Assembly (NCBI GenBank): GCA_031554075.1
Contig: JAVBKJ010000011.1
Coordinates: 1 to 62,586, forward strand
Direction of reading: 5' to 3'
Source of the DNA: Oscillospiraceae bacterium
GTDB lineage: Bacteria; Bacillota; Clostridia; Oscillospirales; UBA929
Length of the DNA stretch: 62,586 nucleotides
The position numbers were made by a program, and so were the translations under genes. Each line of letters opens with the position of its first letter. Positions within the stretch are counted from its first letter, which is position 1. A model generated the notes under the pieces. That model had not been told where the DNA came from. It saw only the letters and a list, made by a program, of their open reading frames with translations, and ran no database searches. Shown here piece by piece: positions 8,101 to 25,678 of this stretch.

Positions 8101-10053
8101 ATCTGTTGGCTTCAAAGTGGCAGTCACTGATTTGTTATCTGGCAGTAAGACCTGAGTGACTTTATCTGGGTTCACTTGCTTATAGAAGATAATATCAGGG
8201 GTAGATTGTAGAATTACTACATTGTTTCTCTCATTGACAAATTTGGCAAAATCGGTGCTATCGATGGTATAGTCAGCCGCTGGCTTGGCAAAAATGTTTT
8301 TATGCTTACCATTATTTGTGCTGAATGTAATATCGCTTACTAAAGCTGATTTAATTGTCAGATAGGGGTTGCCTGCACCACCTGCGGTTGCTGTTGCTGT
8401 GTTTTCCAAATAGACATTGCTAACAGTTTTGCCCGCAGTGTCCAATGTCCAATTCGGTCCTGTCGGGGCGGTAACGCCTGTGTAGTTATTGCTAATATCT
8501 GTGGTAGCGCCCACCAAAGCGGTGAGCGTGCCTGTGGTTACGCCTGCGTTATTGAGATACAGACCGCCGCCGTTTGTGGCTGCACCGTTGTCTTTAATCG
8601 ATATAATTGTCGTATCCAGCGTAGCAGTGTTTATTATTGTTGCTTTCATAGCCACGCCGCCGCCATTAGGTGCATAGTTTTTTGTAATTGTTGCTGTTTT
8701 GCCAGCACCAACGCTCACAGACCCATTGGCAATATATATGCCGCCACCCATGTCTGTCGCTTTGTTCTGGGACAGCGTGAAGTTTGCTTTATCCAAAAGT
8801 AGTATCCCATGAAGCCCCAACTTGCCTACGCCTATACCACCCCCGTTTGTGGCGGAGTTGTTGCGTATAGTATCTGTTTGTAATGTAAGGGTACAATTGT
8901 TGAAGAAAATACCGCCGCCAGTGACTGCTGTATTGTTTTCAATCGTAACACCGTCTGGTATGGTGATATTCCTGCGAGAACTAAAGCCACCACCTTCTCC
9001 GCCAGTGTTACCCGAAATTATGACGCCTGTCTCAATTGTGACATCAGGAGTGTTTATGCTTATACCGCCAGCACCTACAGTGGCAGTATTCCCTATAATC
9101 TTTGTACCGTTACCAATTTTTGCATATGTAGGGTCATTGCCGTTACCAACTTTGATACCACCAGCATCCTTACCAGAATTATTACGGATTGTGGCGCCGT
9201 TGCAGTATAAGTAGGCTGGGGCTTTATTAGGTACGGAAGACATGCTTATTCCGCCTATGCCATCTTTTGCCGTATTATTTTGTATAATGGTGTTAGCATC
9301 CATGTAAAGTGTAGTCCCTATTGACCCAGATAGCGCAGAACCATCGTAAACATCAGTAGCAAGGGCGTTATCCTGCAGTATCGCACCCTGCAAGCGTAGC
9401 GTAGACCCACTTACTATTCTTACAAGTGTACTTTTAGCAGGCGTGGAAACACCCACCTCGTTCATACCGCTTATTATGATGTCTTTGAAGGTAATGTTAG
9501 GGGTCAAATTATCATAGCCTACAAGAATCATTTGACTTACATTCGAATTGAATGTTGAGTGTTTTTTCACAATAATATTGTGTCCGCCATCCCACACTTC
9601 GTCTTCTTGAAGATATATTGGGTCTTCTACATTGACTGATGTGGCTTTAACGATGTAAATAGTGCCGCCAGTAGAACCAAGTGCCGCCTTTGCCGCAGCG
9701 AAGGTACCTGCAGCATTCGCTATGGATTTTCCATCTTTTGTACCATTTCCGCTTTGTGACAAATACGCCACGCCACTACCAATCGTAAAGCCTGGTGTGT
9801 CCAAGGCAAACGTTGTAAGCATCGGCTCTGGCGCCCCTGTGGCTTCAGTGCTAAACGAAGTTTCGGGGGTTAAGGTAGTATCACTGCTTAGTGAGGTTTC
9901 ACTGCCCATCGAGCCGCCCGCCGTCTCGTCAAACTGCGCAAATGCAAACAAGGGTACTGTAAATAAGAATGCCAATATTAGTGCGGAAATGCGCCCTTTG
10001 TGAAGATTTAGTTTTTGCCGAAGCGCCAAGTGTTTGGGATTGTAACGTTTCAT
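2170..10053 (-). CDS. Giant SLH-anchored cell-surface protein (2,627 aa): signal peptide, parallel beta-helix with GGxI/GGGI repeats, about 7 FN3/Ig-like repeats, Listeria-Bacteroides-type repeat, CarboxypepD_reg-like domain, 3 C-terminal SLH domains
   Basis: N-terminal signal peptide (ALILAFLFTVPLFAFAQ). Repeated NGGGIY/TGGGIF/GAGGIS motifs. Recurring SITVNPTN..YEYAIIDP..G.....LTF.GL.PGK.Y modules. GYTF...GW...Y..........L.PKW repeat. SLH signatures FTDVPDNAWY..., FTDVATTHWAY..., ...ITRAEAAAIFYRLL at the C-terminus. GGAGGG RBS. Confidence 0.85.
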   Translation of the reverse strand: MKRYNPKHLALRQKLNLHKGRISALILAFLFTVPLFAFAQFDETAGGSMGSETSLSSDTTLTPETSFSTEATGAPEPMLTTFALDTPGFTIGSGVAYLSQSGNGTKDGKSIANAAGTFAAAKAALGSTGGTIYIVKATSVNVEDPIYLQEDEVWDGGHNIIVKKHSTFNSNVSQMILVGYDNLTPNITFKDIIISGMNEVGVSTPAKSTLVRIVSGSTLRLQGAILQDNALATDVYDGSALSGSIGTTLYMDANTIIQNNTAKDGIGGISMSSVPNKAPAYLYCNGATIRNNSGKDAGGIKVGNGNDPTYAKIGNGTKIIGNTATVGAGGISINTPDVTIETGVIISGNTGGEGGGFSSRRNITIPDGVTIENNTAVTGGGIFFNNCTLTLQTDTIRNNSATNGGGIGVGKLGLHGILLLDKANFTLSQNKATDMGGGIYIANGSVSVGAGKTATITKNYAPNGGGVAMKATIINTATLDTTIISIKDNGAATNGGGLYLNNAGVTTGTLTALVGATTDISNNYTGVTAPTGPNWTLDTAGKTVSNVYLENTATATAGGAGNPYLTIKSALVSDITFSTNNGKHKNIFAKPAADYTIDSTDFAKFVNERNNVVILQSTPDIIFYKQVNPDKVTQVLLPDNKSVTATLKPTDADDNTFKFAFVEQPSGTISAGGWQQGSTSDLTFAGLKPGTTYKVIAQFIDGSFDANKTDFPGYEFTTYAPPIAKIGSTIYTSLDAAITAAKVGETITLLADVSDATTTVINKSITIDGDGHTIESIKATGDVTVTLTDIDFEDKTTPNATLTAGAKITIDATVNDLHVDITNPTSRINVAGDINKPVTITTSGSSTNGQNLVSSTNTTPPDKADFTILPSTKGVLTDGTYLKLGDKVTHTFGVMPIEFVTTGTTTFGTLPNPGAGMGWSSDGGSTFVNASTAIPTIGKTYTATPLPKKAIEITANDVKYEFDSFDDTASNNGKTMAELFASPDPLVIKLLADVDITKVLTLPAKAATLTSVNGSTLKNVRADGGDMIHVVAGGSLTVSNVNLNGNGKAGDVIDNLGTVTLEQTKIVTGNTAAIAVDNHGTLKIDGSKAIIPDKIKLDAGHPIDMTVKIKSGYFNVDLGTGFGNNPVVIYNDGDANKDASDSFGRVKIVNTNTTLVQDVTNNKLIASNSTSIGFMVEPDADVKHTFGYATVDDAAKKADNTHPIYVVHNVTIDPTQVIPGRDIEIYSGDRVVGGDYRTDVTIEHKQNANPAPVITIGDYTFSVNDTNGDPRLDYAGVLDGMKSELNQADFTPEEWTLIEAAIAKAKTDAAALVPGTAKYGDLLDVLDICRATIDEIRMTFTAAINTKNTPMTEDDTASITIERTSPNLDYALVDKNGTIVTSAGGAGGWQTNVSGGSITFTPVVPGGEYTVITVPKADPHPTSPITNPTGTVVIAPVSPPRVTDISKGLDPSDSSKAFIEIKPANKDFEYAIIDPDTGKIVNTGSEWLSDTTAPSEVKFPNLLPGKEYIVVAREIATGDNEALYALPGISVVTPFVDVKAGMGNGTPYPADKTYITVSPTDSDYDYAIVDETTGKIISTDGAAWHVGTNGDMTFGPLDPNHIYRVVTEEHKATQPTGVGDIKPDGGVRIVTPATQLPVTVESTTDKSITISPTNPSYDYAVVDPDTGNVIDGQWITNPAGGAITFSPLLPGKDYVVVDRPKITDATVTIPKVDYRDIPTTDGSALKPAVTKFPLVTGAVITGSKTSITVNPTNEGYIYAVVDETGAIVTTAGGTNGWQTSTDGNNDDKGDSLTFTGLDPGKTYKVIEVPTGTNTADPSLPAKPGVSIVTPTLPLSHADVKGTTTNSITVNPTNPTYEYAIIDPITGKPVGEWKTGSGSTDLTFPGLVAGKEYEVAVRVPNTDPSKTVVVGPTTTATTATPATTTTGTVTFSPGVGGSFIGTAPTELAHAPGYTFQLPPASVLTPPAGKVFGGWTDGTHTYPSGGVYTMPNGNVTLQPKWLNSSSISGHVTDSTTPTPIAIVGATVELKRGDETIVAPTATNGSGDYEFTAVPPGSYNIVITTTDGHVVTRVITVTGGEYTDNATIPDYFLNTKLEVIGGVDVVVGKLDEQMNALLNGLSPTEQTLVKNNGSAELKFMVSDAPSESILTADKTVITNNVATGFTVGQYLDLKALLTITANGVKQPAKTLDSLPSLVQATIWLPENLKGKAAYSVIRSHFNGTIYTSDVLSATANGAGEKIVIDFEQDIITIYTKTFSTYALAYSNTVPPTPPTPTPSSGGSDTISPADAIIKLDPNTTSGTISVTPSVIMIGQKVTVTVKPDDGYYLRELTVVDPNGTSVTYTSDGNNQYSFFPAIKGSYLVTPVFVAYPEKSGVSTLLNTKDHLVYILGDNHGNVNATKNITRAEAAAIFYRLLNNQNVTITNHFTDVPDNAWYKKNVEVLASLGILVGNNGKFEPNRNISRAEFAAICERFATATTLGTRTFTDVATTHWAYNSIQKVSGFGWFPINNDGSFKPERMVTRAEAVIIVNSMLGRNADTAFVNTNTNGLKAFHDLTKKDAVYYEIAEAANGHEFEKTGARETWKKTIAVTLKSAFVTTVESTKSILGRAKEYFATWEQKITNRLAYSN

Positions 10054-13100: not shown

Positions 13101-16100
13101 ATCACTGTAAGTCAGTTTTACGCTCATGCCAGCCAACGCGAGTGCGTCTCCTTGAGTATAACTCATAAGGCTAGGGTCAGTCAAGACTTGAATAGAAGAA
13201 ACTGCTAAACTACCCGTTTTTGGGAAAGTGTACGTGACGGTCATTGTGTTGGCGGCAATGCCAACATTTGTCACCGTTGCGCCAGCCGCTTGCAGATTTA
13301 CTGTTGCGTTGGCTGTGCCTGCAAAGGTGTAGCCTGCATTTGCCTTGAGTGTGGCGGTGATGGAATACACCTTATCGGGGGCAAACTTTCCGTCGGCTGT
13401 CATGATATAATCGGTCGAGCCGCTAACGTTCCAAACAAAGTTTGTGACAGTGAAATGCCCGCTGTTAATGAGTACTTGTGCGGCTGTGGTGGGTGTGACA
13501 CCGATGGTGGGTTTTGTGATGCCCGTAAGCACAGCAGTGGTGATAACGTCTGGCAACACAGATAGATTGCCAGTGGTGTCCTGCCCGCCAGCAGGAGAAC
13601 CCACGCGTATGGCAGTCAAATGATGTTCCGCGGTTGTCAGTGTTGCGCCTTGGGCAACGCTGACGCCAAGGAGCGGTGAATGATTGTAAAAGTTTGCGTA
13701 GGGTACTCTGTTTTCAACTGTGCCGTCGTTATAGGTAATATTAACGGTTAATCCTGTTAAATCGAGCGGTTCGCCCTCAATATAGTTCATTTTCAAGGGC
13801 TGTGTTGCGATTACCAAGTTGTTAATCTTACGAATTGCCGTCATGGGAAAGGTGTAGGTAACTTGGATTGTGTTTCCGTCTGTCCCAGGGGTGGTGTTGG
13901 TTACGACACCGTTAAGACCATTAACCGTGCCGACACAGTCTGGTGAAAAGGCATAGCCAGCGAGTGCCGCAAGGGTGATGGTAACCGTATACACCTTGTC
14001 AGGCATAAACATGCCCGTTGGCGTAAATTCAGCACCAGAGGTACTGCCGCCAACACTCCATACCATTTGCTGTATCGCAAATTTGCCACCATTGCCGTTT
14101 ATCGCGGCTAAGGAGGAGGGCATAGTATTGATGGTAGGGATGCCGATGTCTGTCAGATTCGCGATGCTAATATTGACAGGGACAACGGTGAGATTCAGCG
14201 TATTCGCAGAGCCGCCTGCGGTGGTCGAGACGATAATGGGCTTGCCATTGTGCGTTGCAATCGCCATAACCGTGCCGCCTGCTGGTGCCGCTGTGATTTT
14301 AGGCACATGCGTCGCAAAGGCGGTGTGCGGCACGCCACTTTCCACTGTGCCATCATTGTAGACGAGATTCACGGTCAGACCCGTCAAGTCTAACGTCTCA
14401 CCGACATGATAGGCAAGCTTATCGGGCTGTGATGTAATCGTAAAGCTGTTTGTCGCCAAAGCCCCTGTTTTGGTGAATGACAAGGTTGCTGTGATGGTGT
14501 TGCCGTCTGCTCCTGCCGCCGTGTTTGTGACAACAGCGGTAAGACCATTGATGGTGACAGTCGAGCCGACCACAAAGGTGTAGTTGGGGTTGGCTTTCAA
14601 AGTGGCAACAGCTGTGTAGACAGTGTTTGCCTTAAATTTACCAGCGGGGGTAAAGATATTGGTCGTCGCACCGCCAACCTGCCACTGTAGGTCAAGGATA
14701 GAAAATTTGCCGTTGTTCGTATTCACATCCGTCGCGGCTGCTGGCTGATTGCCCAGAACAGGTGCGGCGACATTGGTTAGTACAGCATTGGCAATGTTGA
14801 TGGAGGTAACTGATAGCGGATTCGTCGTAACCAAACCGCCTAAATTTGTCGTAACGGTAATGGGCTTGCCGTGATGCGTCGCCACTGTGAGGGGTGTTCC
14901 TTGTGAGGGTGAACAGACAATCACAGGATTGTGCGCCGCAAAGGCTGTCGAGGGTATATTTGTTTCCGACGTTCCGTCATTGTAAGTAATATTAACTGAC
15001 AGTCCTGCCAAATTCAGCGTAGCACCTGCGGCATAGGTCAAGGTGGTCGGCTGTTGCGCAAGTGTCATGGTGGACACCGCCAAGGGAGCTGTCTCGGGGA
15101 AGGCAAGCGACACGACAACGGTATTACGTTCAACACCTGGTGTCACGGCAGACACGTAAGCGTCTTGACCATTAATGGTAGCTTTCATGCCAGGGGTGAA
15201 GGAATATGTAGCGTCAGCCTTGAGTACCACATCGACGGCGTATTTTGTCGAGGCTCTAAATTTCCCAGCAGGTGTCAATACGGGCGAAGCTGGCGCATCT
15301 GCTGCCAAACGCCACACCATACTCTGCACTGCAAATTTTCCGCCGTTTATGTTTACCACGCCTTGCGTGGCAGGCGTAGCACCGACGACAGGCGCAGGGA
15401 TACTTGTTAATGCAACTGTTGTGATATCATTTAACACTACCTCGAGGTTGGCGGTGTTCGCAGAGCCACCGATGGCAGAACTCACGGTGACAGGCTTACC
15501 GTTGTGCGTCGCAATGGTAAGCGTTGTACCATGTGCAGGGGTTGTGGTAATCACTGGCACGTGAGACGCAAAAGAGTTGTAGGGTACAGTATTTTCAGTC
15601 GTACCGTCATTGTATATAAGATTCACAGCCAAACCAGTTAAGTCTAGTTTTTGCCCTGTTATGTAGCTTAACTTGGTGGGTTGCGAAGCGATGGTCAAGC
15701 TTGTAATCGCCCGCGCCCCTGTTTTAGGGAACGTAAAGGCGACGCTAATACTGTTGCCGTCCACACCCGGGCTGACATTGGTAATGATGGCTGTCTGTCC
15801 GTTAATGGTGGCGGCACTGCCAACGACAAAGGACGCACCAGCGTTTGCCTTAATTGTTGCAACAGCGGTGTACACGGTATCAGCCTTAAAGGTAGCATTA
15901 GGTGTCAAAATGTTGGTGGTGGCACCATTTACCTGCCACGTTAGGTTTTGTATGACAAAGTTGCCGCCATTAGTGTTGACAGAGGTGTAGGTAACGGGCG
16001 CAACACCCAGCACGGGCGCTGTTATCCCTGTCAGGTTGGCGGTGAGGATACTTGTTGGTCCGACTGCTAACGCACCTGTATAGAGTGTGCCGCCTGCCGC

Positions 16101-17678
16101 AGTGGTTATTTTAATGGTCTTACCATTGTGCGTTGCGGCGTTTAGTAGCGTATCGTTTGCTAAATCGGTATAGATGGCAGGCACATTACTGGCAAACGCA
16201 CTATACGGTACGTTGCTGTCAGTACTGCCGTCGTTGTAACTAATGTTCACTTTTAGTGCCGATAAATCTAGTGCTTCCCCTTGCTTATAGGTAAGCTTCG
16301 GTTGCTGCACAATGCTAAAGCCCGTGACCGTCTTTGCCGCAGTTTTGGGGAAGGTAAAGGAAACGGCCATTCTATTGCGGTCTTTACCAGGTTCTAAGAG
16401 AGAAACAACGGCTGTCTGCCCATTAATAGTGGCGGTACTGCCCACCACAAAGGTCGCTCCAACGTTTGCTGCAACCCCCACTACGGCTGTATAAACTGTA
16501 TCCGCCTTAAATTTACCGTTCGGCGTCAGTGCATTAGTGGTGGAGTCGTCTACTCTCCACTGCAGGGCGTAAGTCGAATATGTACCACCGTTTGTGTTGA
16601 CGACAGCGTGGGTAATTGGTGTTGCACCCATCACTGGCGCAGTAACATTGGTAAGGGTAACATGTGTAATGTTTGCTATGGCAGGCTTTACACTTAAGTT
16701 GCCGACTGTTACTATCTTGCCAGAGACCGACACAGTCAACGCCGCACCGTTGTGACCCGTGGTCAACCCTGTACCATGACTGTAATTCACTGAAATAACG
16801 GGGTTGTGTGAGGCAAAGGAACTATACGGTATATTACTCTCTGTCGTGCCATCCGTATATGTTATGGTAGCACTCAAGCCAGACAGGTTCAGTGCTTGCC
16901 CCACTGTGTAGCTTAGGTTGGGGTTACCTACAATGGTTATTTGAGACGCTACCCGTTCGGCAGGCTTTACACTTAAGTTGCCAACCGTGACCGTCTTACC
17001 AGAGACCGACACAGTCAACGCCGCACCGTTGTGACCCGTGGTCAACCCTGTACCATGACCGTAATTCACTGAAATAACGGGGTTGTGCGAAGCAAATGAG
17101 CTGTAGGGTATGTTGCTCTCTGTCGCGCCATCTGTATACATAATGGTGGCACTCAAACCAGAGAGATTCAGTGGTTGCCCCGCCGTGTAGCTTAGGTTTG
17201 GCTGCCCAGAAATTGAAATATTGTAAGCAGTGCGAACAAGCTGTCCCGTAGCAGGGAAAGTAATCGCAAAATCGGCTAATGCAAGGAGATTGGCTTGGTA
17301 GCGTCTTCCTTCTATTCCATTAATAAACCCTCGTAAATATGGGCTGAATATATTGGAGTTATTTCTGGAAGCAGCAAGGATTTTGACAGTATACACTGTG
17401 TCAGCATTAAACTTCTCTCCACTAAAATAAGGGCCTTGTTCCCCACCAACAAACCAATCAACGTTGTTAACGAAATATTTATCTGTGTCATCGCCTGACG
17501 TTTGCTGAGCACCAGAAACTCTGAACGGTTTTGCACCTGCTACAGGCGCCGGAACATTAAAGTATACTGCTGAAACTAATGCCCCATTCATTACATAAGA
17601 CGCTTGTGCCTCGGGCATGGGCATCAGTCCGCATAGTAACAGTATCGCTAAAGCAACAGATATAATTCTCTTTTGCAT
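10188..17678 (-). CDS. Giant secreted modular protein (2,496 aa): signal peptide plus 11 'A' modules (~115 aa) interleaved with 13 bacterial Ig-like (Big_3-type) 'B' modules (~93 aa); no recognisable wall or membrane anchor
   Basis: Signal peptide MQKRIISVALAILLLCGLMPMPEAQA. B modules match I..QP.KL.Y..G..LDL.GL.V...YNDGT.E..VPY..FA.H.P.I. A modules match VTAPV.G..P.......NGG.F......W.V.G.....TP.GKFKA.TVYTA...LKA..GYTF........ING......N..PG.DGNTI.V..TFPKT. The protein ends ...GNTSILGNFSFT with no LPXTG, SLH or TM segment. AAGGAG RBS. Confidence 0.85.
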   Translation of the reverse strand: MQKRIISVALAILLLCGLMPMPEAQASYVMNGALVSAVYFNVPAPVAGAKPFRVSGAQQTSGDDTDKYFVNNVDWFVGGEQGPYFSGEKFNADTVYTVKILAASRNNSNIFSPYLRGFINGIEGRRYQANLLALADFAITFPATGQLVRTAYNISISGQPNLSYTAGQPLNLSGLSATIMYTDGATESNIPYSSFASHNPVISVNYGHGTGLTTGHNGAALTVSVSGKTVTVGNLSVKPAERVASQITIVGNPNLSYTVGQALNLSGLSATITYTDGTTESNIPYSSFASHNPVISVNYSHGTGLTTGHNGAALTVSVSGKIVTVGNLSVKPAIANITHVTLTNVTAPVMGATPITHAVVNTNGGTYSTYALQWRVDDSTTNALTPNGKFKADTVYTAVVGVAANVGATFVVGSTATINGQTAVVSLLEPGKDRNRMAVSFTFPKTAAKTVTGFSIVQQPKLTYKQGEALDLSALKVNISYNDGSTDSNVPYSAFASNVPAIYTDLANDTLLNAATHNGKTIKITTAAGGTLYTGALAVGPTSILTANLTGITAPVLGVAPVTYTSVNTNGGNFVIQNLTWQVNGATTNILTPNATFKADTVYTAVATIKANAGASFVVGSAATINGQTAIITNVSPGVDGNSISVAFTFPKTGARAITSLTIASQPTKLSYITGQKLDLTGLAVNLIYNDGTTENTVPYNSFASHVPVITTTPAHGTTLTIATHNGKPVTVSSAIGGSANTANLEVVLNDITTVALTSIPAPVVGATPATQGVVNINGGKFAVQSMVWRLAADAPASPVLTPAGKFRASTKYAVDVVLKADATYSFTPGMKATINGQDAYVSAVTPGVERNTVVVSLAFPETAPLAVSTMTLAQQPTTLTYAAGATLNLAGLSVNITYNDGTSETNIPSTAFAAHNPVIVCSPSQGTPLTVATHHGKPITVTTNLGGLVTTNPLSVTSINIANAVLTNVAAPVLGNQPAAATDVNTNNGKFSILDLQWQVGGATTNIFTPAGKFKANTVYTAVATLKANPNYTFVVGSTVTINGLTAVVTNTAAGADGNTITATLSFTKTGALATNSFTITSQPDKLAYHVGETLDLTGLTVNLVYNDGTVESGVPHTAFATHVPKITAAPAGGTVMAIATHNGKPIIVSTTAGGSANTLNLTVVPVNISIANLTDIGIPTINTMPSSLAAINGNGGKFAIQQMVWSVGGSTSGAEFTPTGMFMPDKVYTVTITLAALAGYAFSPDCVGTVNGLNGVVTNTTPGTDGNTIQVTYTFPMTAIRKINNLVIATQPLKMNYIEGEPLDLTGLTVNITYNDGTVENRVPYANFYNHSPLLGVSVAQGATLTTAEHHLTAIRVGSPAGGQDTTGNLSVLPDVITTAVLTGITKPTIGVTPTTAAQVLINSGHFTVTNFVWNVSGSTDYIMTADGKFAPDKVYSITATLKANAGYTFAGTANATVNLQAAGATVTNVGIAANTMTVTYTFPKTGSLAVSSIQVLTDPSLMSYTQGDALALAGMSVKLTYSDNATEIVYASDFDTHTPQIRVTPSNGTLLTIADNNKQALRVTTASGGVATSITKLIVKPAKIAAVTATLPAPVKGNTPATSGVVVVGNSTYVATDVTWTVGGSQTNIFTPTGAFKAGTAYTAVITLKAVSGYTFKNGCTGKVNTQNANNVGNLTPNVAENELTLTYTFPATVGVALTNFAVITPPTTMVYTQSATLNLAGLTVSLTYNDGTTKTVPYADLALHGITPSVAHGTILSNATHNGTTLTLTCLGTTIPVGMLTVNANLIMTAAATNVTAPTIGGTPITAPSIMTAGQYTAESIVWSIGADTNAATIFANGKFKANTTYDVTITLKALNNYAFAAACTGKINGLFVSVTNTAPNTDGNVITLKYSFPPTGSRVAASITVANQPTKMAYVTGNQLKLGGLKVDITYNDGSVEHNVPYAAFATHNPTVYVSPTQNTVLSAAAHHNKPIVVTCGTASATTTSLILDFKPITDVRVTGVVAPVTSGTPALTYNSSADGVLSPVSLEWSVAGNTNAADIFTATGKFKPNTNYTAKVTVKAGTAYTFAGLCQGFINGNVAYTTNPTPNTERNTMTLSYIFPQTAPLTVASIAVDTQPTLAYFEMDALQLSGLVVRVTYSNGDTALVPFSQFSQHEPAITASPTHGYNLGILQNGNPITLHCGTAIATTGAMVITPKPVTPPTVNVTSFTLYTNPKLIYEVGQPLDYTTLAARFTMSDGSQQIIPYANFGANGITVTPAEGTLIDMSHHNTRVILSYNGYTVHTNRITVTTPPPALIDITTANITGIRQPTASFKAPAAGDLSGDGGNGHYSISDIVWSSIGGTLSSGNPFLGATSYTAEITLVADSGYTFPTSFTTSILGISTSVANSNPSTDGNTIKVSVQFPVSIYVGGVALVSGLNLTTLGPLNLKDLVITVNYSGGSPETLTYDELVALGATFSHPDGTVIDYTHGGLSFNMTLGGNTSILGNFSFT
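16681..17238 (-). repeat. Two tandem 279-bp copies (93 codons each) encoding the first two B modules
   Basis: Copies 16681-16959 and 16960-17238 align without gaps and share a 61-nt perfectly identical core (ccagagaccgacacagtcaacgccgcaccgttgtgacccgtggtcaaccctgtaccatgac). By eye, identity is roughly 85-90% over the first ~230 nt. Confidence 0.85.
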
Positions 17679-17763
17679 AAAATAAAACTCCTTAAAATGT
17701 CAATATGTATTAATTTAGCATCCGAAAACGATAGCTGTTGCTGTTAGGATACGGTATTACCAG

Positions 17764-17940
17764 TTATTTCTGGTTTGTTTCCTTAGTGTCCATGGCTAGC
17801 AAACGTTGTTCGAGATTCATAGGCTCTTGTGATTGATGCAGAAAAAAATCACACGCAGATCTTGTGCTTTTTGTGGCCGTTATCTTTGCCAAGGATGCCA
17901 TCTTTCTTGTGAAAAAATTGCCTTTTTTGTTAGTGTTCAT
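17764..17940 (-). CDS. agrD: AgrD-type autoinducing-peptide precursor (58 aa; not in the supplied ORF track)
   Basis: Hand translation: MNTNKKGNFFTRKMASLAKITATKSTRSACDFFLHQSQEPMNLEQRLLAMDTKETNQK. AAGGAG RBS (17951-17956) lies 10 nt before the ATG. The ORF sits immediately after and overlaps agrB by 11 nt. Cys, a 5-residue ring candidate (CDFFL) and Pro at Cys+10 match S. aureus (CDFIMDEVEVP) and clostridial AgrD. An alternative start at Met14 gives 45 aa. Confidence 0.75.
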   Translation of the reverse strand: MNTNKKGNFFTRKMASLAKITATKSTRSACDFFLHQSQEPMNLEQRLLAMDTKETNQK

Positions 17941-18529
17941 TTTGTGTTTTCTCCTTATATAATGTAGTTAGTACAGCAAATGCCATACTTCCGCAAACGG
18001 ACAACATGGATAAGAGTATGGCGGTAAAGATGCGCGAGGGACAAAAAAACGTGCCGACGGTACAGCCCACTGCAAATGTAAAAGCCACAATAATGCTTTT
18101 TAGTTTCAGTGTGCGTTTTAACGTCGGCTTTAGGTACTTATTGACATGCGCCACGGGGGCGAGGGCAAGGACTGTCAACAGCGTAATGCCACTGATGATA
18201 ACAGATAGCATTCTGTAGCTTTCTTGTGGCAGCCATTGCAATAGTAAAAGGCTTACTGTAAGGAGGCAGGCAAAGGCGGTGATACATCCAGCATGTGTCT
18301 GCGCATGATGTCCGCCCGTAAAGCCGCGAAACAACGCAAACGCGAAAGTAAACACCACGCCCTCCCAAAACATTCCAAAACATAGGGAAATCAGCAAGCT
18401 TAGCAAACAATTAAATAGGGTGGATACAATTGTTTCACAAGCGTAAGTATAAATGTCGTCATCCTCTTGCGCGATGATGCCTTGCCTTATAAAAACAGAT
18501 GCTATCCGTTTCGCCAAGGTGTGAATCAT
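17930..18529 (-). CDS. agrB: AgrB-family accessory gene regulator protein (AIP-processing membrane peptidase)
   Basis: Multi-TM protein carrying the family motif FRGFTGGHHA. I prefer the ATG at 18529 (MIHTLAKRIA...) preceded by GGGGTGA. The ORF track extends to a TTG at 18589. Confidence 0.85.
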   Translation of the reverse strand: MIHTLAKRIASVFIRQGIIAQEDDDIYTYACETIVSTLFNCLLSLLISLCFGMFWEGVVFTFAFALFRGFTGGHHAQTHAGCITAFACLLTVSLLLLQWLPQESYRMLSVIISGITLLTVLALAPVAHVNKYLKPTLKRTLKLKSIIVAFTFAVGCTVGTFFCPSRIFTAILLSMLSVCGSMAFAVLTTLYKEKTQNEH

Positions 18530-18597
18530 TTGTATCACCCCAGGGCTAAGAATAGCATCTGTTATGTATATTTTCAAGTGGCTATGCAAAATTGACG

Positions 18598-19920
18598 TTA
18601 ATCATGCAAAATTGGAATGCGCGGAATCGAAAATAAAAGACGAAATACATTTTCATCAAACTCAAAGCTCAGTTCGCCCCCTAGCGAACGAGCGGTTGCC
18701 TGCATACTGATCAGTCCTAAACCGTGAGAATCCTTATCATTTTTCAGAGTGTGTAAGAAAGTGCCATCATATTGAGGTCTTTCTCCGATTGTGTTCTCTA
18801 TTACCGTCAACATATTGGTTTTATACATGGACACACGCATATGTATAAACCGTTCTTTGTCACTTCGCATACACGCCTCAATCGCGTTATCTAGCGCGTT
18901 GCCAAATAAAGCACAAATGTCAACTGTGAGATCAGACATTTGGGGAGGCACTTGAATGTCCCAATGGCACTGGATATGATTCTTTTTGGCGAGATTTCGT
19001 TTTGCGGATAACAGCGCGTCGAGCATCGGGTTATCGGTTAAAACCACAGGCGTGACATCGTGTTGCCAATCGGTAAGCTTCGCCAAACTATCAGACAGTT
19101 CGTCAAATTGTCCCATTTCGCAAAGCGACCGAAACATATGCACGTGTTGCTTAAAATCATGCGACATTTGCCGTATTTGCGCCCGATTTTCTGTCAGCTG
19201 CAAAATATAATCACGCTGTGCGGCAACCTGTGCATCTAATAAGGCTAATCGTTTGTCTTTTTCACTGCGGCGAATAAGCTCCTCCATGATAGAGAAAACC
19301 GCCATATTGATTAAGACTAGCCCGAAAATGCAAAACAATGTTGTGATAGTTTGGGGGCTATAGTCTGACAACGCGTCTATTGTAAATTGCAGTGCTAAGA
19401 AAATTGAAAAAATAGGTAGCATCCATAGCGGAATCCAAAGTCTGGAACGCATGACCTCCATGCTCCCGACACGCAATCTCATTATGATTTTGATTAATAG
19501 AAATTTGAGCAAATCCATGATAATCAGCGCAGCAAACCTATATTTTGTAAAATCTGCCACCTGCTGAAATGTAACTGTTTGCGAAATGGATATGATAACG
19601 GCCGCCAGAAGCTCCGCGCCAATCGCACATAGAAGATATATAAAAGCGGACAGCACAGCCCATAGGACAGTACACTGCCGTGTCGTAAGACAGACTATAA
19701 ACGTAAAGAGGATGGTGCTTGATAAAATAATCAATATGCTGTCTTTTAGAAAGTAGCTGATGAGAAATTTTGCGATACAGACACAGAGAAAGAGTGTCAA
19801 CACGAGTGGCTTGCGCAGTGTACGACGTTCCTTAAAAAAGGCACTAGCAAACATGAAAATTAAGATAGTTTCTATCAAGGCGCTCAGTGCTTCGATGATA
19901 GCCCAAAGCGAAATGTTCAT
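18598..19920 (-). CDS. agrC: AgrC-like (HPK10) membrane sensor histidine kinase
   Basis: About 6 N-terminal TM helices, H-box SHDFKQHVHMF, N-box FGNALDNAIEA, G-box DSHGLGLISM. Confidence 0.8.
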   Translation of the reverse strand: MNISLWAIIEALSALIETILIFMFASAFFKERRTLRKPLVLTLFLCVCIAKFLISYFLKDSILIILSSTILFTFIVCLTTRQCTVLWAVLSAFIYLLCAIGAELLAAVIISISQTVTFQQVADFTKYRFAALIIMDLLKFLLIKIIMRLRVGSMEVMRSRLWIPLWMLPIFSIFLALQFTIDALSDYSPQTITTLFCIFGLVLINMAVFSIMEELIRRSEKDKRLALLDAQVAAQRDYILQLTENRAQIRQMSHDFKQHVHMFRSLCEMGQFDELSDSLAKLTDWQHDVTPVVLTDNPMLDALLSAKRNLAKKNHIQCHWDIQVPPQMSDLTVDICALFGNALDNAIEACMRSDKERFIHMRVSMYKTNMLTVIENTIGERPQYDGTFLHTLKNDKDSHGLGLISMQATARSLGGELSFEFDENVFRLLFSIPRIPILHD

Positions 19921-20633
19921 GATAGCCCCTCCCGTCTAAAGCCCATATAGGCAGCTTTGACAAGCTTTTGATACTTTCGACTAATGGGGATTTTTGTGCC
20001 ATCTAGCAGGGACACATGGTCGTCGAACTGGATAAACACATGCGCCAAATTAACAATATATGAATTATGAGTTCGCACAAACCCGTGATGTACCAACAGC
20101 GGTTCTTCGATATCCAACTTGCCCATAAACTCGTATTTTCTGTCAATTGTGTTGACATGTATGTAGTGCTTGACACTTTCGATAAATTGTATGTCTGCCA
20201 TTGGTAAGGCGAGTTGACCGCCGCCCTTTAACTTTATGACGTATGTTTGGGTCTTTCTGCGGGTGAGCATGGTGACAATTCTGTCCATCGTGGGTTCAAA
20301 CCGTTCCCTAGTGACTGGCTTTACTAAGTAGTCAGACGCCATCACTGTAAAAGCCTGCAGCATCGCTTCTTCCATAAACGTGACGAAGATTATATGTACG
20401 CGCATGTCTAGCATTCGAATCTTTTCAGCTAAGGCAAACCCATTCATGTCGGGCATCGACACATCTAAAAACAGTATGTCAAAGTGGCGACTTGGATAGT
20501 CTAGCAATAGTTTGGCGGCGGTGTCATATTCATTTACATCGAAGTTGAGCATATGTTGTTTTTCGTACTGGGCAATGAGTTTTCTCTGACGTTCGATATG
20601 AATTTTCTCATCGTCACAAATCGCTATTCGCAT
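19917..20633 (-). CDS. agrA: AgrA-like response regulator (REC plus LytTR DNA-binding domain)
   Basis: MRIAICDDE...DILFLDVSMPDMNG receiver domain. C-terminal LytTR pattern ...FVRTHNSYIVNLAHV...IPISRKY. 4-nt ATGA overlap with the kinase gene. GGGAGG RBS. Confidence 0.85.
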   Translation of the reverse strand: MRIAICDDEKIHIERQRKLIAQYEKQHMLNFDVNEYDTAAKLLLDYPSRHFDILFLDVSMPDMNGFALAEKIRMLDMRVHIIFVTFMEEAMLQAFTVMASDYLVKPVTRERFEPTMDRIVTMLTRRKTQTYVIKLKGGGQLALPMADIQFIESVKHYIHVNTIDRKYEFMGKLDIEEPLLVHHGFVRTHNSYIVNLAHVFIQFDDHVSLLDGTKIPISRKYQKLVKAAYMGFRREGLS

Positions 20634-20647
20634 GAATTGCCTCCCAT

Positions 20648-20764
20648 CTGGATACTCTGTCAGATTATATCATAATGGAAAATATAATCAATAGCAAGTG
20701 TAACAGACAAAATAGGCATAGAAGTAAGGCGCATGGATGTAAAACGGGCGGTATGGTGAAGGGG
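20648..20764. repeat. 117-bp direct repeat, copy 1 (promoter module upstream of agrA)
   Basis: Aligns without gaps to 23592-23708. About 6 mismatches in the first 80 nt, a ~10-nt divergent patch, then a conserved distal block (cgggcggtatggt[g/a]aagggg). Confidence 0.9.
20664..20691 (-). promoter_or_regulatory. Sigma-A-type promoter for the agr operon (TTGATT-16 nt-TATAAT with TGn extended -10)
   Basis: Minus strand reads ATTGATTatattttccattaTGATATAATctgaca. The predicted start is about 25 nt before the agrA ATG. Confidence 0.6.
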
Positions 20765-20820
20765 GGAATTGATTGTGGAATTTAAGTCGGGGGTGATGGT
20801 GGCTGTGGAGGAATAATGGT

Positions 20821-20860
20821 AAGAATGAAAAAGGCACTCTACCGATTGACGTAGAGTGCC
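20821..20860 (-). terminator. Rho-independent terminator of the 793-aa gene (T tracts on both sides)
   Basis: GGCACTCTAC-8 nt-GTAGAGTGCC, followed by TTTTTCATTCTT on the minus strand and by ACTTTTGTTT on the plus strand. Confidence 0.8.
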
Positions 20861-20888
20861 ACTTTTGTTTGCAAGCATATATGTAACT

Positions 20889-23270
20889 CTATGATTGAGC
20901 TAATCCCTCTTCGAAAGAACTCTTAAATTTTCTCAAATTCTTTCTTGCGATTTTCATAGCCTCAACGGATTCTTCAGCTTTCTTTATCTTTCCTTGGAGT
21001 TCCTTCTTCTCTTTGCCATTTGCTACATCTGCATGAAGTTTTAATTCGACAATACCTTTTTCGATCTCCATAATATTTTGCACATATTGCTCGTAGATGC
21101 TGTTTGAATACTCAATATCGTGTTCGTCATTAAGGAAGATTTCTCTGACTGAAACAAGGAGTTTTGCGGACTGTAAAATGGTATTTTGCTTTCCGAGTAG
21201 ACCAGCAGCACCAACAGCACCGCCGACACCTAAACCGGCTCCAATACCGAGTACAGCTCCGCCACCGACAATTGCTATCGTGCCACCAGCCATTCCTGCA
21301 CCGCCTATAGCAATTGCGCCACCGCCGAGATAAGCAAGACAAGCACTTGTTAGTGCCGCACCACTGAGTCCAGCAAAATTCGAGCCAACTAATGCAACGG
21401 CAATTGCAGGAGCAAACGCACCCGCTGTTGCAATTGTGATGATTGCTATTCCGGCGGTTATTGCTCCCCCTATTAAAATCCCCTTGAGAACTTCTTTCAT
21501 TTCTAAAACGACTTTGCCGTAACATTTGCGAAGCCTTTTAATATAACCTTTTTTATAATAATCACCAGAGAAAAACAAATCGATAAAATCGTCACCGTTG
21601 CTTTTCCTATAACTGTTAATAGGGTTTTGTAGGTCTTTGTATTTCTTACTCGGCACGCCAGTGCCCATTTTATCTTTTTCTATACTTAGCGGATAAAATG
21701 GCTCAAAAAGCATTGCTTCAAGTAGAACCAAGCGAAACCAAGTATTATGTGGCTCGTTTTCCTCAATTTTCTGAATTAATTCTTGCTCTGTGTACCAGTG
21801 TAGTTCAGCACCTTCAATTTGCAAGAAACTTGAAAAGCCCTTCGAGATGTACTCTTTCCACTCATTGAGCCAGTCTTGCTTTAGGCGTTTTATACCTTCA
21901 TTGTTGATAGGCGATATTGTTGCTTGAATGTCATTTAGGGTTTTGTAGAATTCGAGGTTGTACAAAATCTCTGTCTGGGCTACCGTTAAACCAAGTTTAT
22001 CAATATTCATATCGGCACTTATCCTATCATAAATTTTGTCGTCAGTTTTCGTATATGCAAACCTATGAATGTTCTCGTACATCGTCTTTATTCTTTTGAC
22101 GCTTCTGGTTTTCAAACACCAAGATATGTCTTCTCCTAATGCAACGGTGAAACGGCCAACACCAACGTAATTGATAGACACCCAGTATTTTTGAGTGACA
22201 ATTGCCTCGCCGACATCAATGGTGGTAAAGACTCCAGTAGCGATCGTTAGCATTCGGGAAATTGTGGGATTATTTAGCGGCTTAACTATGTCCCAATCAA
22301 TCTGTTTCATTTCAGCAAATGACCGAATGTCTTGTTCCCGAATCTCGATTGCAAGATGTCGGATGAAATAGAAACATCTAACGATGCACTCATTTGCGAT
22401 AACAGGAATCGCCTGTCGCCCAAGTTCGAAGACAACGCCGAGTTCACCGCGGAAATCAAACTTCATCACGGTATCTTTGATAATCGTGCCAGATTCATCG
22501 CGCCTCGCAAGCAACGTGCCGTTAAAGAGTTTTGACAAAAACACTGATAAAGAATTATCGCCGATATTTATGTTTTTGAAAATCGGAAGCACAGATAGTT
22601 CTTTTGCCAACGCAAGCAGGGGACCGGGGATGCCAGTACCGCCACTCTTGCCTACGGAACTTCTCGAACCGGCTACATCACTCACGAGATGAAAGAACCA
22701 CGTAATAGTTCCGAATAGTATTTTTGATGGCACATCCTTACCAATGAAGGCTTTACTTACTTCCTGCACGTCGGCAATCATAAAAACACCGTTGACATCT
22801 GTTCCGTATGACTTGTAGGTGAACTGTGTAAGGAGTGAAAATATAAGCCCTACAATTGTGGGGTGGTGAGCAAAATCACGAAGATGGTGCTGTAAGCCGC
22901 CACCAAAGTCAGGGGTATTGCCATCGCTTGGAATCGGAAATTTCTTTTCAAGGAATTTTACCGCACCCTTCAAATCGTCGCCACTGTAACCGAGAAGCTT
23001 TGCTGTTTTGGTTACAAAGCTGTCTATTTCATTGCTCGTGATGCTGCGACCACGTTCCAAGCTAAAGCTACCTACCCATAGAATGTCGAGCAATCCGCAC
23101 ATAACCCCGCTACCAATTGAAACCAAGTAGTCGTATTTGTCCGCTTGGCTTGACAGCAAATCAATCTGACTGTCTAAGTCGAAGATTATCCTATCAAGGT
23201 TATACTCAGAATCAAACTTGCTCTCGTTGTACTGTTGAAGTTCGACTTGGAGATTATCTGTTTCTAACAT
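20889..23270 (-). CDS. Uncharacterised 793-aa protein: unassigned ~600-aa N-terminal region, ~100-aa glycine-zipper (GxxxG/AxxxG) membrane tract, charged coiled-coil-like tail
   Basis: Long ORF with a GGGAGG RBS. The tract is GILIGGAITAGIAIITIATAGAFAPAIAVALVGSNFAGLSGAALTSACLAYLGGGAIAIGGAGMAGGTIAIVGGGAVLGIGAGLGVGGAVGAAGLLG. The tail is ...KEKKELQGKIKKAEESVEAMKIARKNLRKFKSSFEEG. I see no canonical Walker A or other catalytic motif. Confidence 0.8.
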   Translation of the reverse strand: MLETDNLQVELQQYNESKFDSEYNLDRIIFDLDSQIDLLSSQADKYDYLVSIGSGVMCGLLDILWVGSFSLERGRSITSNEIDSFVTKTAKLLGYSGDDLKGAVKFLEKKFPIPSDGNTPDFGGGLQHHLRDFAHHPTIVGLIFSLLTQFTYKSYGTDVNGVFMIADVQEVSKAFIGKDVPSKILFGTITWFFHLVSDVAGSRSSVGKSGGTGIPGPLLALAKELSVLPIFKNINIGDNSLSVFLSKLFNGTLLARRDESGTIIKDTVMKFDFRGELGVVFELGRQAIPVIANECIVRCFYFIRHLAIEIREQDIRSFAEMKQIDWDIVKPLNNPTISRMLTIATGVFTTIDVGEAIVTQKYWVSINYVGVGRFTVALGEDISWCLKTRSVKRIKTMYENIHRFAYTKTDDKIYDRISADMNIDKLGLTVAQTEILYNLEFYKTLNDIQATISPINNEGIKRLKQDWLNEWKEYISKGFSSFLQIEGAELHWYTEQELIQKIEENEPHNTWFRLVLLEAMLFEPFYPLSIEKDKMGTGVPSKKYKDLQNPINSYRKSNGDDFIDLFFSGDYYKKGYIKRLRKCYGKVVLEMKEVLKGILIGGAITAGIAIITIATAGAFAPAIAVALVGSNFAGLSGAALTSACLAYLGGGAIAIGGAGMAGGTIAIVGGGAVLGIGAGLGVGGAVGAAGLLGKQNTILQSAKLLVSVREIFLNDEHDIEYSNSIYEQYVQNIMEIEKGIVELKLHADVANGKEKKELQGKIKKAEESVEAMKIARKNLRKFKSSFEEGLAQS

Positions 23271-23591
23271 ATTAAAGTATCCTCCCAGTATTTAAAATTT
23301 AAGCGATGCAACGCCCCCCTTGAGGTTAAACTAATATCTGCAAAGCAAACAGAGAACTTCAGTGCTATCACACATGAGATTACACGCAAAAACATCTAAA
23401 GCGACCACACAACCTCATAAAATCCGAAAAACATCTACTCCGCTCTCTCGTGAACACCCAATATCTAAACTGACCTCTCGTCAACCACCCACATCCAATC
23501 AGTGCTGTCACACTCCCAACTGCCGCACTCGACTTATTCCCAACACCCATATTTCCACGATTTTTCACATTGACTTCTCACATAGAAACAC

Positions 23592-23708
23592 CTGGATACT
23601 CTGTCAAATTATATCATAATGGAAAATATAATCAATTGCAAGTGCAATAGACAAAATAAGTATAGAAGTAAGATTTATAACTGTATAACGGGCGGTATGG
23701 TAAAGGGG
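23592..23708. repeat. 117-bp direct repeat, copy 2 (promoter module upstream of the 793-aa gene)
   Basis: See copy 1. The two copies are 2,944 bp apart. Confidence 0.9.
23608..23635 (-). promoter_or_regulatory. Sigma-A-type promoter, paralogue of the agr promoter, driving a ~330-nt leader and the 793-aa gene
   Basis: It carries the same TTGATT-16 nt-TGATATAAT arrangement inside repeat copy 2. Confidence 0.55.
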
Positions 23709-23711
23709 TAG

Positions 23712-23747
23712 ATAAAAAATAAGACACCTTACGAAACGTAGGGTGTC
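23712..23747 (-). terminator. Rho-independent terminator of the flavoprotein gene
   Basis: GACACCTTACG-AAA-CGTAGGGTGTC, followed on the minus strand by TTATTTTTTAT. Confidence 0.8.
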
Positions 23748-23778
23748 CTAATGAGCGTAGTCGTCTATAAAGACATAT

Positions 23779-24342
23779 TCAAATAGAGTAGCCCATATGT
23801 TCCGCTTGTATCAGCGCATCTGTCTTCTGAATAGCCCCTTTTTCATATATTTGTGGGATTGCTAACACGCCGACATCTTCCCAGTGCATATACGCCGCCA
23901 TATGTCTGTATGAAGAAATGACACCTGAAAAAATATCCATGCTCTCACATGCGCCACAAATCAACAGTATACTCTCTTTAATCTTCAATGGACGCATACA
24001 GTTTTCAGAATCATACGCATTCAGTTTATCAATCGGTGCTTTGATTTGCGATGATAACCCAAACAAATATAAGGGAGATGCAAAGATAACTACATCTGCA
24101 CGTTCAAGTAGCGGCTCTAGTTCAGTAAAGCCATCTTGAAATGAACAAGCCGTTCCTTTGCTCCAACAGGTACCACAGGCTTTGCAACCGCCAATCGTTT
24201 TTCTGCCCGCCGAAAATTTTGTAACATTGTGACCTTTCGCTTGTGCGCCCTTTATAAACGCATCAGCCATCAGTTCACTATTACCATCTCTTCTGGGACT
24301 TCCTGTAATAACTAAAATATCTTTTTCCACTTTATTTCTCAA
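23779..24342 (-). CDS. Flavodoxin-like NAD(P)H-dependent FMN reductase / iron-sulfur flavoprotein family
   Basis: ILVITGSPRRDGNSELMADAF... and the Cys cluster GGCKACGTCW. Confidence 0.7.
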   Translation of the reverse strand: MRNKVEKDILVITGSPRRDGNSELMADAFIKGAQAKGHNVTKFSAGRKTIGGCKACGTCWSKGTACSFQDGFTELEPLLERADVVIFASPLYLFGLSSQIKAPIDKLNAYDSENCMRPLKIKESILLICGACESMDIFSGVISSYRHMAAYMHWEDVGVLAIPQIYEKGAIQKTDALIQAEHMGYSI

Positions 24343-25678
24343 CTCGTGACATCAATACCACCGTCTCAACGTGCGTCGTGCGGGGGAAAAGGTCAACGGC
24401 GGCGCAATGGGTGACTGTGTAGCCGCTGGCGGCCAACGTTTTGCAGTCGCGCGATAGCGTGCCGGGGTCACAGGACACATACACAATGCGTTGAGGCTGT
24501 AGGGTGAGTAACGCCTCAATATGAGCGGCGTCTAGCCCACTGCGTGGCGGGTCAACGGTGACAACCGCGGGCGATAGGTCGCTTAATTGCGCACCCAAGT
24601 CGCCTGCGTCACCTGCTTGAAAGCTGGCGTTGAAGATGCCGTTGCGCGCCGCATTTTCTCTGGCACAGGCCACCGCCTGCGGCACAAGTTCGACGCCGAA
24701 CGCCGCCTTGCAGTCACGCGCCAGCCACAGTGTAATCGTACCAACACCGCAAAATAAGTCAACAAATGTGTCATCCTTTGTGAGGGCGGCGTAACCGCGA
24801 ACAATGTCGTACAGGCGCACGGCTTGGGCGGAATTTACCTGCGCAAACGAAAAGGGGTGTAGTTCAAACTGCAAGTCGCCCAACGTCTCGATAACGGTGT
24901 CTTCGCCCCACAGCACCTTCACTTGACCCTGACCCATGACGACGTTATCACGTCGTTGGTTCGTTATCGTTAGCAAGCCTGCCAGATCGGGTACGCGCTC
25001 GCGCAACGCGTCTGCCAATGTATCCCCCCATGGGAAATGTTTTCCATTTATAATAAGTGCCACTTGCACACCCTTTGTGGCGCGTACAAACAGATGGCGC
25101 ACAAGCCCTTCCCCCGTTTTGGGGTCATAGGCGGTAATCTCATTTTTGTCCATAAATTCGCACAGTACTGCCGCGACGCGGTTTGCACGCTCGTCTGCTA
25201 TCAGGCAGTTGCCGTATGCAATGATATCATGCGAATGGGCGCGAAAAAATCCAACAAATGTCTTGCCGTCTTGTTGTGCGACAGGGAACAGTGATTTATT
25301 GCGATAGCCCGACAGGGCAGGCGCGCCATGCATCGTATCAACGGTGACGGGCATACCGCCAATACGCGCAAAGGCTTGCTCGATGCGCCGTTGCTTAAAC
25401 CACAGTTCTTCCTCATACGTAATATGTTGAAAATGACAGCCGCCGCAAGGGGGGCAAACAGGGCAAGCGGACGCGATGCGGTGCGGTGATGGTATCTCTA
25501 TGTTCTCTACCTTACCCCACGCAACTTTGGTGGCGACCTTGAGAATCCTAATTTCGCAGGTTTCCTCGCGAACCCCGCCATGGACAAAGACGGCCTGCCC
25601 CTCAATGTGGCAGACCCCTAAGCCCTCACTGGAATAATCAGTGATGACAACTGTATGTAGCTGATTTTTTTCTAACAT
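24332..25678 (-). CDS. RumA/RlmD-family 23S rRNA (uracil-C5)-methyltransferase (TRAM domain, Fe-S Cys cluster, SAM-MTase)
   Basis: N-terminal TRAM-like domain, Cys cluster CPVCPPCGGCHFQH, SAM motif DLFCGVGT, C-terminal VYVSCDP. Confidence 0.8.
   Translation of the reverse strand: MLEKNQLHTVVITDYSSEGLGVCHIEGQAVFVHGGVREETCEIRILKVATKVAWGKVENIEIPSPHRIASACPVCPPCGGCHFQHITYEEELWFKQRRIEQAFARIGGMPVTVDTMHGAPALSGYRNKSLFPVAQQDGKTFVGFFRAHSHDIIAYGNCLIADERANRVAAVLCEFMDKNEITAYDPKTGEGLVRHLFVRATKGVQVALIINGKHFPWGDTLADALRERVPDLAGLLTITNQRRDNVVMGQGQVKVLWGEDTVIETLGDLQFELHPFSFAQVNSAQAVRLYDIVRGYAALTKDDTFVDLFCGVGTITLWLARDCKAAFGVELVPQAVACARENAARNGIFNASFQAGDAGDLGAQLSDLSPAVVTVDPPRSGLDAAHIEALLTLQPQRIVYVSCDPGTLSRDCKTLAASGYTVTHCAAVDLFPRTTHVETVVLMSRVEK

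Follow-up and report, generated by a model that had tools for sequence, protein, structure and literature searches.

The window analysed here is a 62.6 kb stretch of the genome of an Oscillospiraceae bacterium (contig JAVBKJ010000011.1), and the copy counts given for repeats refer to those 62.6 kb. It carries a pair of long direct repeats, copy A and copy B, that bracket a gene for a 793-aa protein next to an agr-type locus. Read along the minus strand, the order of features is a uracil-5 methyltransferase gene, a flavoprotein gene with its terminator, copy B, a leader, the 793-aa open reading frame, a second terminator, copy A, the agr genes and the surface-protein genes (Table 1). The agr set is complete by profile matches (PF04647 AgrB, 8e-33; TIGR04223 AgrD, 5e-7; a HATPase_c_5 kinase; Response_reg plus LytTR), and comprises agrA, encoding the LytTR response regulator (20633-19917), an agrC-like kinase gene (19920-18598), agrB (18589-17930) and agrD (17940-17764). 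The regulator gene comes first, giving the order A-C-B-D rather than B-D-C-A.

The two repeats align without gaps over 120 nt, with 104 of the 120 positions identical (86.7%; MAFFT and a repeat finder), and their starts are 2,944 nt apart. The gap-free repeats of 117 nt with this spacing that were described in the initial annotation are real, and their coordinates fall within the larger unit. Past the 120 nt, similarity on either side is no greater than in shuffled sequences (333 and 1745 of 2000 shuffles do as well); extensions of the repeat into the agrA start codon or further upstream were dropped, neither being significant. A 28-nt core (TTGATTATATTTTCCATTATGATATAAT) and a 35-nt middle pattern are each confined to the two copies (shuffle expectation 0.00 for both). 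A 15-nt distal block (ACCATACCGCCCGTT) is identical in the two copies and has no other exact match in the window (shuffle expectation 0.14), while one further match with two mismatches, at 33333, is at chance level. Apart from repeats in the surface-protein genes, self-BLAST of the window showed no further dispersed repeats, and a search for the conserved sub-blocks elsewhere in the 62 kb gave no further copy and nothing meaningful. No terminal inverted repeats were found in the copies.

The same promoter is predicted in both copies: TTGATT and TATAAT separated by 16 nt, with a TG extension in front of TATAAT. In copy A the -35 element lies at 20691-20686 and the extended -10 element (TGATATAAT) at 20672-20664; in copy B the -35 is at 23635-23630 and the -10 at 23613-23608. 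The shared promoter claimed in the initial annotation therefore stands, with the correction that 16 nt is the distance to TATAAT, and 13 nt that to TGATATAAT. Three promoter-like sequences matching at 10 of 12 positions occur between 17.5 and 24.5 kb; the promoters of copies A and B are two of these, scoring highest in the region jointly with the third, and are the only ones with the TG extension. Copy A stops just short of the agrA ribosome-binding site (GGGAGG). Each copy is preceded by a terminator, as had been noted before: a hairpin with a T-run 68 nt upstream of copy A (fold z = -6.8), and, ahead of copy B, the flavoprotein-gene hairpin (fold z = -5.0).

The 16 differences between the copies are unevenly spread, in agreement with the blocky conservation described previously. 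The 48-nt stretch that begins with the -35 element and closes the repeat at about +13 has only two of them, against 14 in the 72 nt upstream (Fisher p = 0.026), and a single 9-nt patch in the upstream part differs at seven of its nine positions. From the contrast of 2/48 with 14/72 changes, we infer that the core promoters of both copies have been kept by selection.

Sequence homologous to the left arm of prophages or integrative elements occupies the interval between the repeats. Its junctions were mapped by BLAST of window positions 24000-20400 against loci fetched for comparison (designated L001 and so on). Apart from the long matches listed in Table 1, positions 20860-20767 separately match L072 at 15559-15654, which corresponds to a terminator and the 3′ end of a 524-aa serine recombinase gene. 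At the right junction the homology runs through GACTTAAATTCCACAATCAATT and ends at 20767, and copy A begins at 20764, so that the two are 0-2 nt apart. At the left junction, homology of the leader to L067 and L004 extends back to CAATGTGAAAAATCG (about 23573) while copy B ends at 23589; the 15 nt between them (23574-23588) leave the left edge uncertain by that much. Compared with L004, L067 and L072, the window is without the 75-110 nt that normally join the methyltransferase stop codon to the leader. Because homology ends inside the leader and inside the recombinase gene, the inter-repeat DNA is, on these alignments, a fragment of a prophage arm, cut at arbitrary internal points and with a repeat at both cuts. 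Direct repeats longer than 30 bp thus flank foreign DNA at 0-2 nt and at no more than 15 nt from the ends of homology. The sole mobility-gene sequence in the insert is the 16-codon remnant of the recombinase, and there is no intact recombinase gene. A weak tblastn extension of the recombinase homology into copy A (E 1.3) was not upheld by DNA alignment or by residue-by-residue reading of the protein. The mapping supports one of the two explanations offered in the initial annotation, that the repeats are an insertion footprint involving duplication of the agr promoter region, as foreign homology fills the space between the copies.

The repeat itself appears to be host sequence. It had no match above chance in the 82 fetched loci (1.07 Mb, more than 30 of them with the 793-aa gene; best match 20 nt, E 0.32) and none by BLAST in phage genomes, and an exact 28-mer gave zero matches in metagenome contigs. 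On these searches the repeat belongs to the agr side of the junctions, not to the cassette. The possibility that copy B is the cassette's own promoter, suggested by early alignments, was rejected when it was found in no relative. Comparison with another agr locus gives a weak indication in the same direction, and is the sole comparative evidence that the promoter is native to the agrA side. The best AgrA relative is 31% identical among 185k species genomes and 50% identical among 5.8 billion proteins, the latter (L077) on a contig of 1.35 kb, where 73 nt of sequence upstream of agrA are available. These end in TGTGATAAACTGAC, 13 nt and ATG; copy A, with TGATATAATCTGAC, shares the extended -10 and discriminator and has an equally short 5′ untranslated region. 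Exact look-ups of the AgrA and 793-aa proteins of the window found nothing on record. As no AgrA relative exceeds 50% among the 5.8 billion proteins, the agr lineage is essentially unsampled.

The leader of the 793-aa gene carries four degenerate iteron units, with equivalents in L067 (279-395) and L004 (9815-9930). The units of the window have 19 mismatches to the consensus in 68 positions, compared with 4/68 in L067 and L004 (p = 0.001). Because L067 and Syntrophomonas wolfei keep 64 of the 68 positions despite synonymous saturation of the coding sequences (dS 4.3, window against L004), the units are, by this measure of conservation, functional in both. In the window they have decayed, although the 793-aa coding sequence is 93% identical to that of L067; the leader is 82% identical. 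No sense-strand sigma-70-like promoter was found in the 500 nt upstream of the gene in L067 and L004. The original regulatory input of the 793-aa gene, we infer, disappeared together with the prophage, and expression of the gene now depends on copy B. The iterons resemble the methyltransferase 3′ end GGTGGTATTGATGTCA, and candidate roles for them include operator sites, att relics and an RNA element. The leader as a whole was dropped as a candidate RNA element, since there was no Rfam match at E ≤ 1 in 20400-24000, its 320 nt fold no better than shuffled sequences (z = -0.17), and Tandem Repeats Finder was negative.

The interpretation that best fits these observations, with a probability of about 0.65, is that the 120-nt repeat is the native promoter of the agr operon plus about 13 transcribed nt, duplicated when a rearrangement fused a 2.8-kb piece of a decaying prophage to this promoter. 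From copy B, a mobile gene with no recognisable promoter of its own in relatives would gain a strong one of sigma-A type, and copy A would keep the agr and surface-protein operon expressed behind the terminator of the cassette. The copies differ by 13%, a plausible level of divergence that is similar in magnitude to the neutral divergence between the cassette and its closest relative (dS 0.23).

Two routes to this arrangement may be considered. In the first, the fragment would have inserted in one step into the agrA 5′ untranslated region, at a point past about +13 but ahead of the ribosome-binding site, and 120 bp of the target would have been duplicated. In the second, a prophage integrated at the adjacent methyltransferase 3′ end would have been remodelled: a tandem duplication fused the promoter to the leader; the first copy of the cassette was then lost, possibly by recombination between two copies of the methyltransferase end, as in L072; and a deletion finally ran from the recombinase gene to the promoter. 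These hypothetical steps would reproduce the observed order. Under either route the repeat is a rearrangement scar.

The methyltransferase end is relevant here, as all loci with an iteron leader carry this 3′ end, whole or as a trace, at 190-360 nt upstream. Traces were found by motif scan in L002, L004 and L072-L074, and by eye in L067, from a partial ...GGGTAAAAGAGTGA sequence; L002 keeps a clear remnant of the 3′ end while the gene itself is gone, and the remnant in L067 is partial. Integration recurs at the 3′ end of the TRAM/uracil-5 methyltransferase gene (HVE[TS]VVLMSRV..*), a hotspot located at 24332-24397 in the window, at 8056-8102 and 9643-9674 in L072, at about 9800-9835 in L002 and at about 9650-9691 in L004. 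L072 shows tandem accretion, with a hybrid gene end and a displaced older copy. In L072-L074 and L004 the same gene and leader follow this end beside serine recombinases, in the manner of accessory ('moron') or defence genes at the ends of prophages inserted in methyltransferase genes of the rum/rlmD type. In the window the methyltransferase is still present on one side and the recombinase remnant on the other, but the flavoprotein gene, its terminator and copy B are interposed, and the rest of the prophage is replaced by copy A and agr. The cassette probably reached the locus through the methyltransferase attachment site. When the window was scanned for another copy of the methyltransferase 3′ end, only a chance-level match of 16 nt at 1239-1254 emerged.

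Several points weigh against a promoter duplication of this kind, or against its simplest form. The activity of both promoters is a prediction. With just two copies, selection on the core promoters rests on a contrast of p ~0.03, and gene conversion could equally be the source of core conservation. No empty site or intermediate was found in the databases searched, because they hold no close relatives of the agr locus. The cassette is also only 0.8-1.1 kb (1.06 kb) from the methyltransferase end HVETVVLMSRVEK used by the elements of relatives (L004, L072-L074), an unlikely coincidence, of about 1 in 1,000, for a random insertion into the agr promoter. This proximity favours multi-step remodelling, the intermediates of which are hypothetical.

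A less likely reading, which is the second explanation of the initial annotation, gains no positive support from the sequence but is compatible with a scar origin and stresses function: the upstream blocks shared by the copies would be AgrA operators, through which the autoinducing peptide co-induces the agr operon and the 793-aa gene as it does P2 and P3 in Staphylococcus aureus, the diverged patch tuning affinity. A complete agr set does lie directly downstream of copy A, and the distal block is identical in both copies and has no other exact match in the window. AgrA-type promoters have a pair of direct repeats of about 9 bp, 12-13 bp apart, just upstream of the -35 (PMC4227749), and a 9-12-9 arrangement can be drawn in both copies (TACAGTTAT-12-TATACTTAT in copy B, TACATCCAT-12-TATGCCTAT in copy A), with the centre of the proximal half-site near -60, the geometry of AgrA at P2 and P3 (PMC4227749). 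The half-sites are self-similar at 7/9 positions in copy B and only 5/9 in copy A, a poor match, and chance alone would yield about one pair of this kind (offsets 20-22); no 9-12-9 pair was conserved in both copies or above chance. The AgrA-dependent P2 and P3 have suboptimal spacers of 18 and 20 nt and become AgrA-independent once the spacer is optimised (PMC4227749), whereas the promoters here are near-consensus, with a 16-nt spacer and a TG extension, and so lack the weak core of those promoters. No conserved block recurs elsewhere in the 62 kb, the gene driven by copy B is a promiscuous prophage gene that is never linked to agr in the other loci examined, and the conserved blocks could simply mirror a recent duplication. 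A more specific version, which seems unlikely, is that the host placed a prophage-derived Bunzi-like effector, active in defence or abortive infection, under an AgrA-responsive autoinduced promoter by copying that promoter. In this scheme AgrA would bind the two promoters with different affinities, as at P2 and P3, owing to the diverged 9-nt patch, where copy B has acquired ACAGTTATA.

The likeness to S. aureus is that two promoters lie by an agr locus, one for the autoinduction operon and one for another transcript. There they are divergent and adjacent, each with an AgrA direct-repeat pair and a suboptimal spacer, and P3 makes RNAIII. In the window they are tandem duplicates 2.9 kb apart, near-consensus and without demonstrable LytTR repeats. 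The second predicted transcript is not RNAIII-like: it encodes the mobile 793-aa membrane protein behind an unstructured leader.

It is very improbable that the repeats are attL and attR, in which case an integrating element with a promoter region of its own would have duplicated the core of a site-specific recombination site. Elements with att sites that overlap the end of a gene do have flanking direct repeats, from tens of bp to over 100 bp long (PMC2853133), and the insert does hold a remnant of a recombinase gene. Its ends, however, are internal, truncated prophage sequence and not the termini of an element, no intact recombinase is present, the repeat is missing from all the related elements examined (82 fetched loci), and relatives integrate at the methyltransferase 3′ end by means of a different sequence. 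Serine recombinases are not known to make long duplications. Scarcely credible is a generic dispersed repeat (of REP or MITE type, with promoter-like hexamers) or an assembly artefact: the inspection covers 62 kb of genome only, but the two copies have the same orientation, sit exactly at the cassette junctions, are correctly placed before genes, lack terminal inverted repeats and have zero matches in public metagenome and phage collections, and their 16 differing positions argue against a collapse or duplication artefact.

Table 1. Features of the repeat-flanked cassette and its surroundings, with matches of the window to related loci (window coordinates).
Feature	Position	Strand	Remarks
agr-type locus	17764..20633	-	predicted to be driven by copy A; order agrA-agrC-agrB-agrD
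Repeat copy A	20645..20764	-	about 75 nt of upstream sequence, -35, extended -10 and about the first 13 transcribed nt
Foreign fragment, ~2.8 kb	20767..23573	-	truncated leader, 793-aa gene, terminator and recombinase remnant; BLAST and alignments to L001, L002, L004 and L067-L074
Serine recombinase remnant	20768..20816	+	last ~16 codons and stop, ending ...ELIVEFKSGVMVAVEE; convergent with the 793-aa gene
Bidirectional intrinsic terminator	20833..20860	.	common to the 793-aa gene and the recombinase-gene remnant
793-aa gene	20889..23270	-	BnzB-like N-terminal part; no Pfam family
Four degenerate iteron units	23392..23507	-	consensus GTGGTCAGGTTAGATGT, ~17 nt; spacing 30/30/39 nt
Repeat copy B	23589..23708	-	identical core promoter; the 793-aa gene's leader (320 nt) comes next
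Flavoprotein-gene terminator hairpin	23720..23750 (approx.)	-	U-run reaches to within 3-11 nt of copy B; fold z = -5.0
FMN-reductase or flavodoxin-like gene	23779..24330	-	183 aa, from GTG 24330
tRNA/rRNA uracil-5 methyltransferase gene	24332..25678	-	3′ end HVETVVLMSRVEK and stop is the attachment region in prophage relatives
Match to L067-L071	23484-20860		92% identity; closest, dS 0.23
Match to L001	23286-20780		89% identity
Match to L072	23311-20790		86% identity

The 793-aa gene was called an orphan in the initial annotation, which is not borne out. Over 3,000 homologues are present in the protein database, of which the 120 best listed are 77-92% identical, with sources that include S. 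wolfei, Oscillospiraceae, Clostridiaceae and other Clostridia; relatives at 36-52% identity occur in viral contigs, and one at 31% in a phage genome. The gene belongs to a mobile, prophage-borne family, usually located at prophage ends, with similarity to BnzB: residues 37-248 match the PADLOC BnzB profile PDLC03834 of the Bunzi system (E 3.9e-44), a partial match that covers profile positions 156-373, or 218 of 504. The C-terminal part is weakly similar to BnzA (E 0.086). A Gly-rich hydrophobic segment lies at about residues 600-690, and the C-terminus is predicted to be helical. Sequence searches of Pfam, NCBIfam, PHROGs and the PDB with the protein gave no match, and its AlphaFold model is unusable (mean pLDDT 34).

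Elsewhere in the fetched loci the gene is found as a solo gene in unrelated contexts. In L001 it is beside DISARM-like genes in an integrative element, where positions 13253-22382 encode DrmE_C, a helicase, MZB and a methylase with Vsr. It adjoins an IS605-family gene in L002, lies between the methyltransferase gene and an IS3 in L004-L007 (S. wolfei), and follows a prophage lysis module in L087. In L072-L074 it is at the end of a prophage, near a dynamin-like gene, two to three large serine recombinases, an amidase and a holin; the HTH and dynamin-like GTPase genes occupy 12980-15220 in L072. The company of defence genes in L001 and L072-L074 fits a defence role of the family. Judged from its homologues and contexts, the 793-aa gene is foreign, mobile and prophage-borne, and encodes a putative membrane protein of defence-like type.

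Bunzi is a two-gene anti-phage system (BnzA/BnzB) with a TerB/transmembrane protein (Millman et al. 2022, 10.1101/2022.05.11.491447). The 793-aa protein shares with it the BnzB profile match, membrane association and defence or prophage neighbourhoods. It differs in being encoded by a single gene, with no BnzA neighbour in the insert and no TerB or other Pfam match.

The flavoprotein gene next to copy B has its GTG start 1 nt past the methyltransferase stop codon and has about 42% G+C, against more than 50% in the methyltransferase gene. Its relatives (83% and 78% identical; DNA 76-80%) lie in two unrelated contexts without synteny, and because homology in both stops at the coding sequence, it looks like a horizontally transferred solo gene. 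To the right of 24.3 kb is core genome (SecA, DnaJ, Der, PlsY) with 48-55% G+C. A drop to 40-45% is limited to about 16.5-24.3 kb, the region of flavoprotein gene, cassette and agr, while the surface-protein genes mostly have 45-52% and the start of the window about 44-45%. The sequence to the left of the methyltransferase gene may represent one or several islands. A tyrosine integrase gene (77-850, plus strand) is found at the far end of the agr and surface-gene block. The two giant genes after agrD (17678-2170; 2,627 and 2,496 aa) encode Big_3 Ig-like repeats and a C-terminal SLH; they start 85 nt past agrD and may be co-transcribed with agr. They also contain internal 243-nt repeats (16680-16922 and 16959-17201) that are 88% identical.

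The nearest parallel to the promoter duplication is the insertion of restriction-modification genes, unaccompanied by mobility genes, with target duplications of 46-423 bp (Nobusato et al. 2000; Furuta, Abe and Kobayashi 2010; PMC2853133). Both cases involve a short foreign block with a defence-type gene and no working mobility gene, flanked by repeats far above the length of transposon target duplications (120 bp here) that consist of unique local sequence abutting the insert. There, however, the single-copy target was seen in a sister genome, which the window does not have; the cargo here, instead of a restriction-modification system, is a BnzB-like gene of a prophage arm; identity between the copies is only 87%; and the adjacent attachment hotspot in the methyltransferase gene suggests a multi-step origin.

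The locus is a new example of known processes, namely an insertion flanked by long repeats or a duplication and deletion, with capture of a promoter by a mobile gene, and no new kind of mechanism is required. If the reconstruction is correct, it would provide a clear Firmicute example of an accessory gene of a decaying prophage that was retained by being wired to a duplicated host promoter, in which the duplication also rescues the host operon behind the terminator of the cassette, and it would add a case other than restriction-modification to the poorly understood insertions with long target duplications. It also leads to the hypothesis that a BnzB-like gene is co-expressed with the agr and surface-protein operon, possibly in a manner dependent on cell density, and the significance would grow if quorum-sensing control of this defence-like gene were shown.

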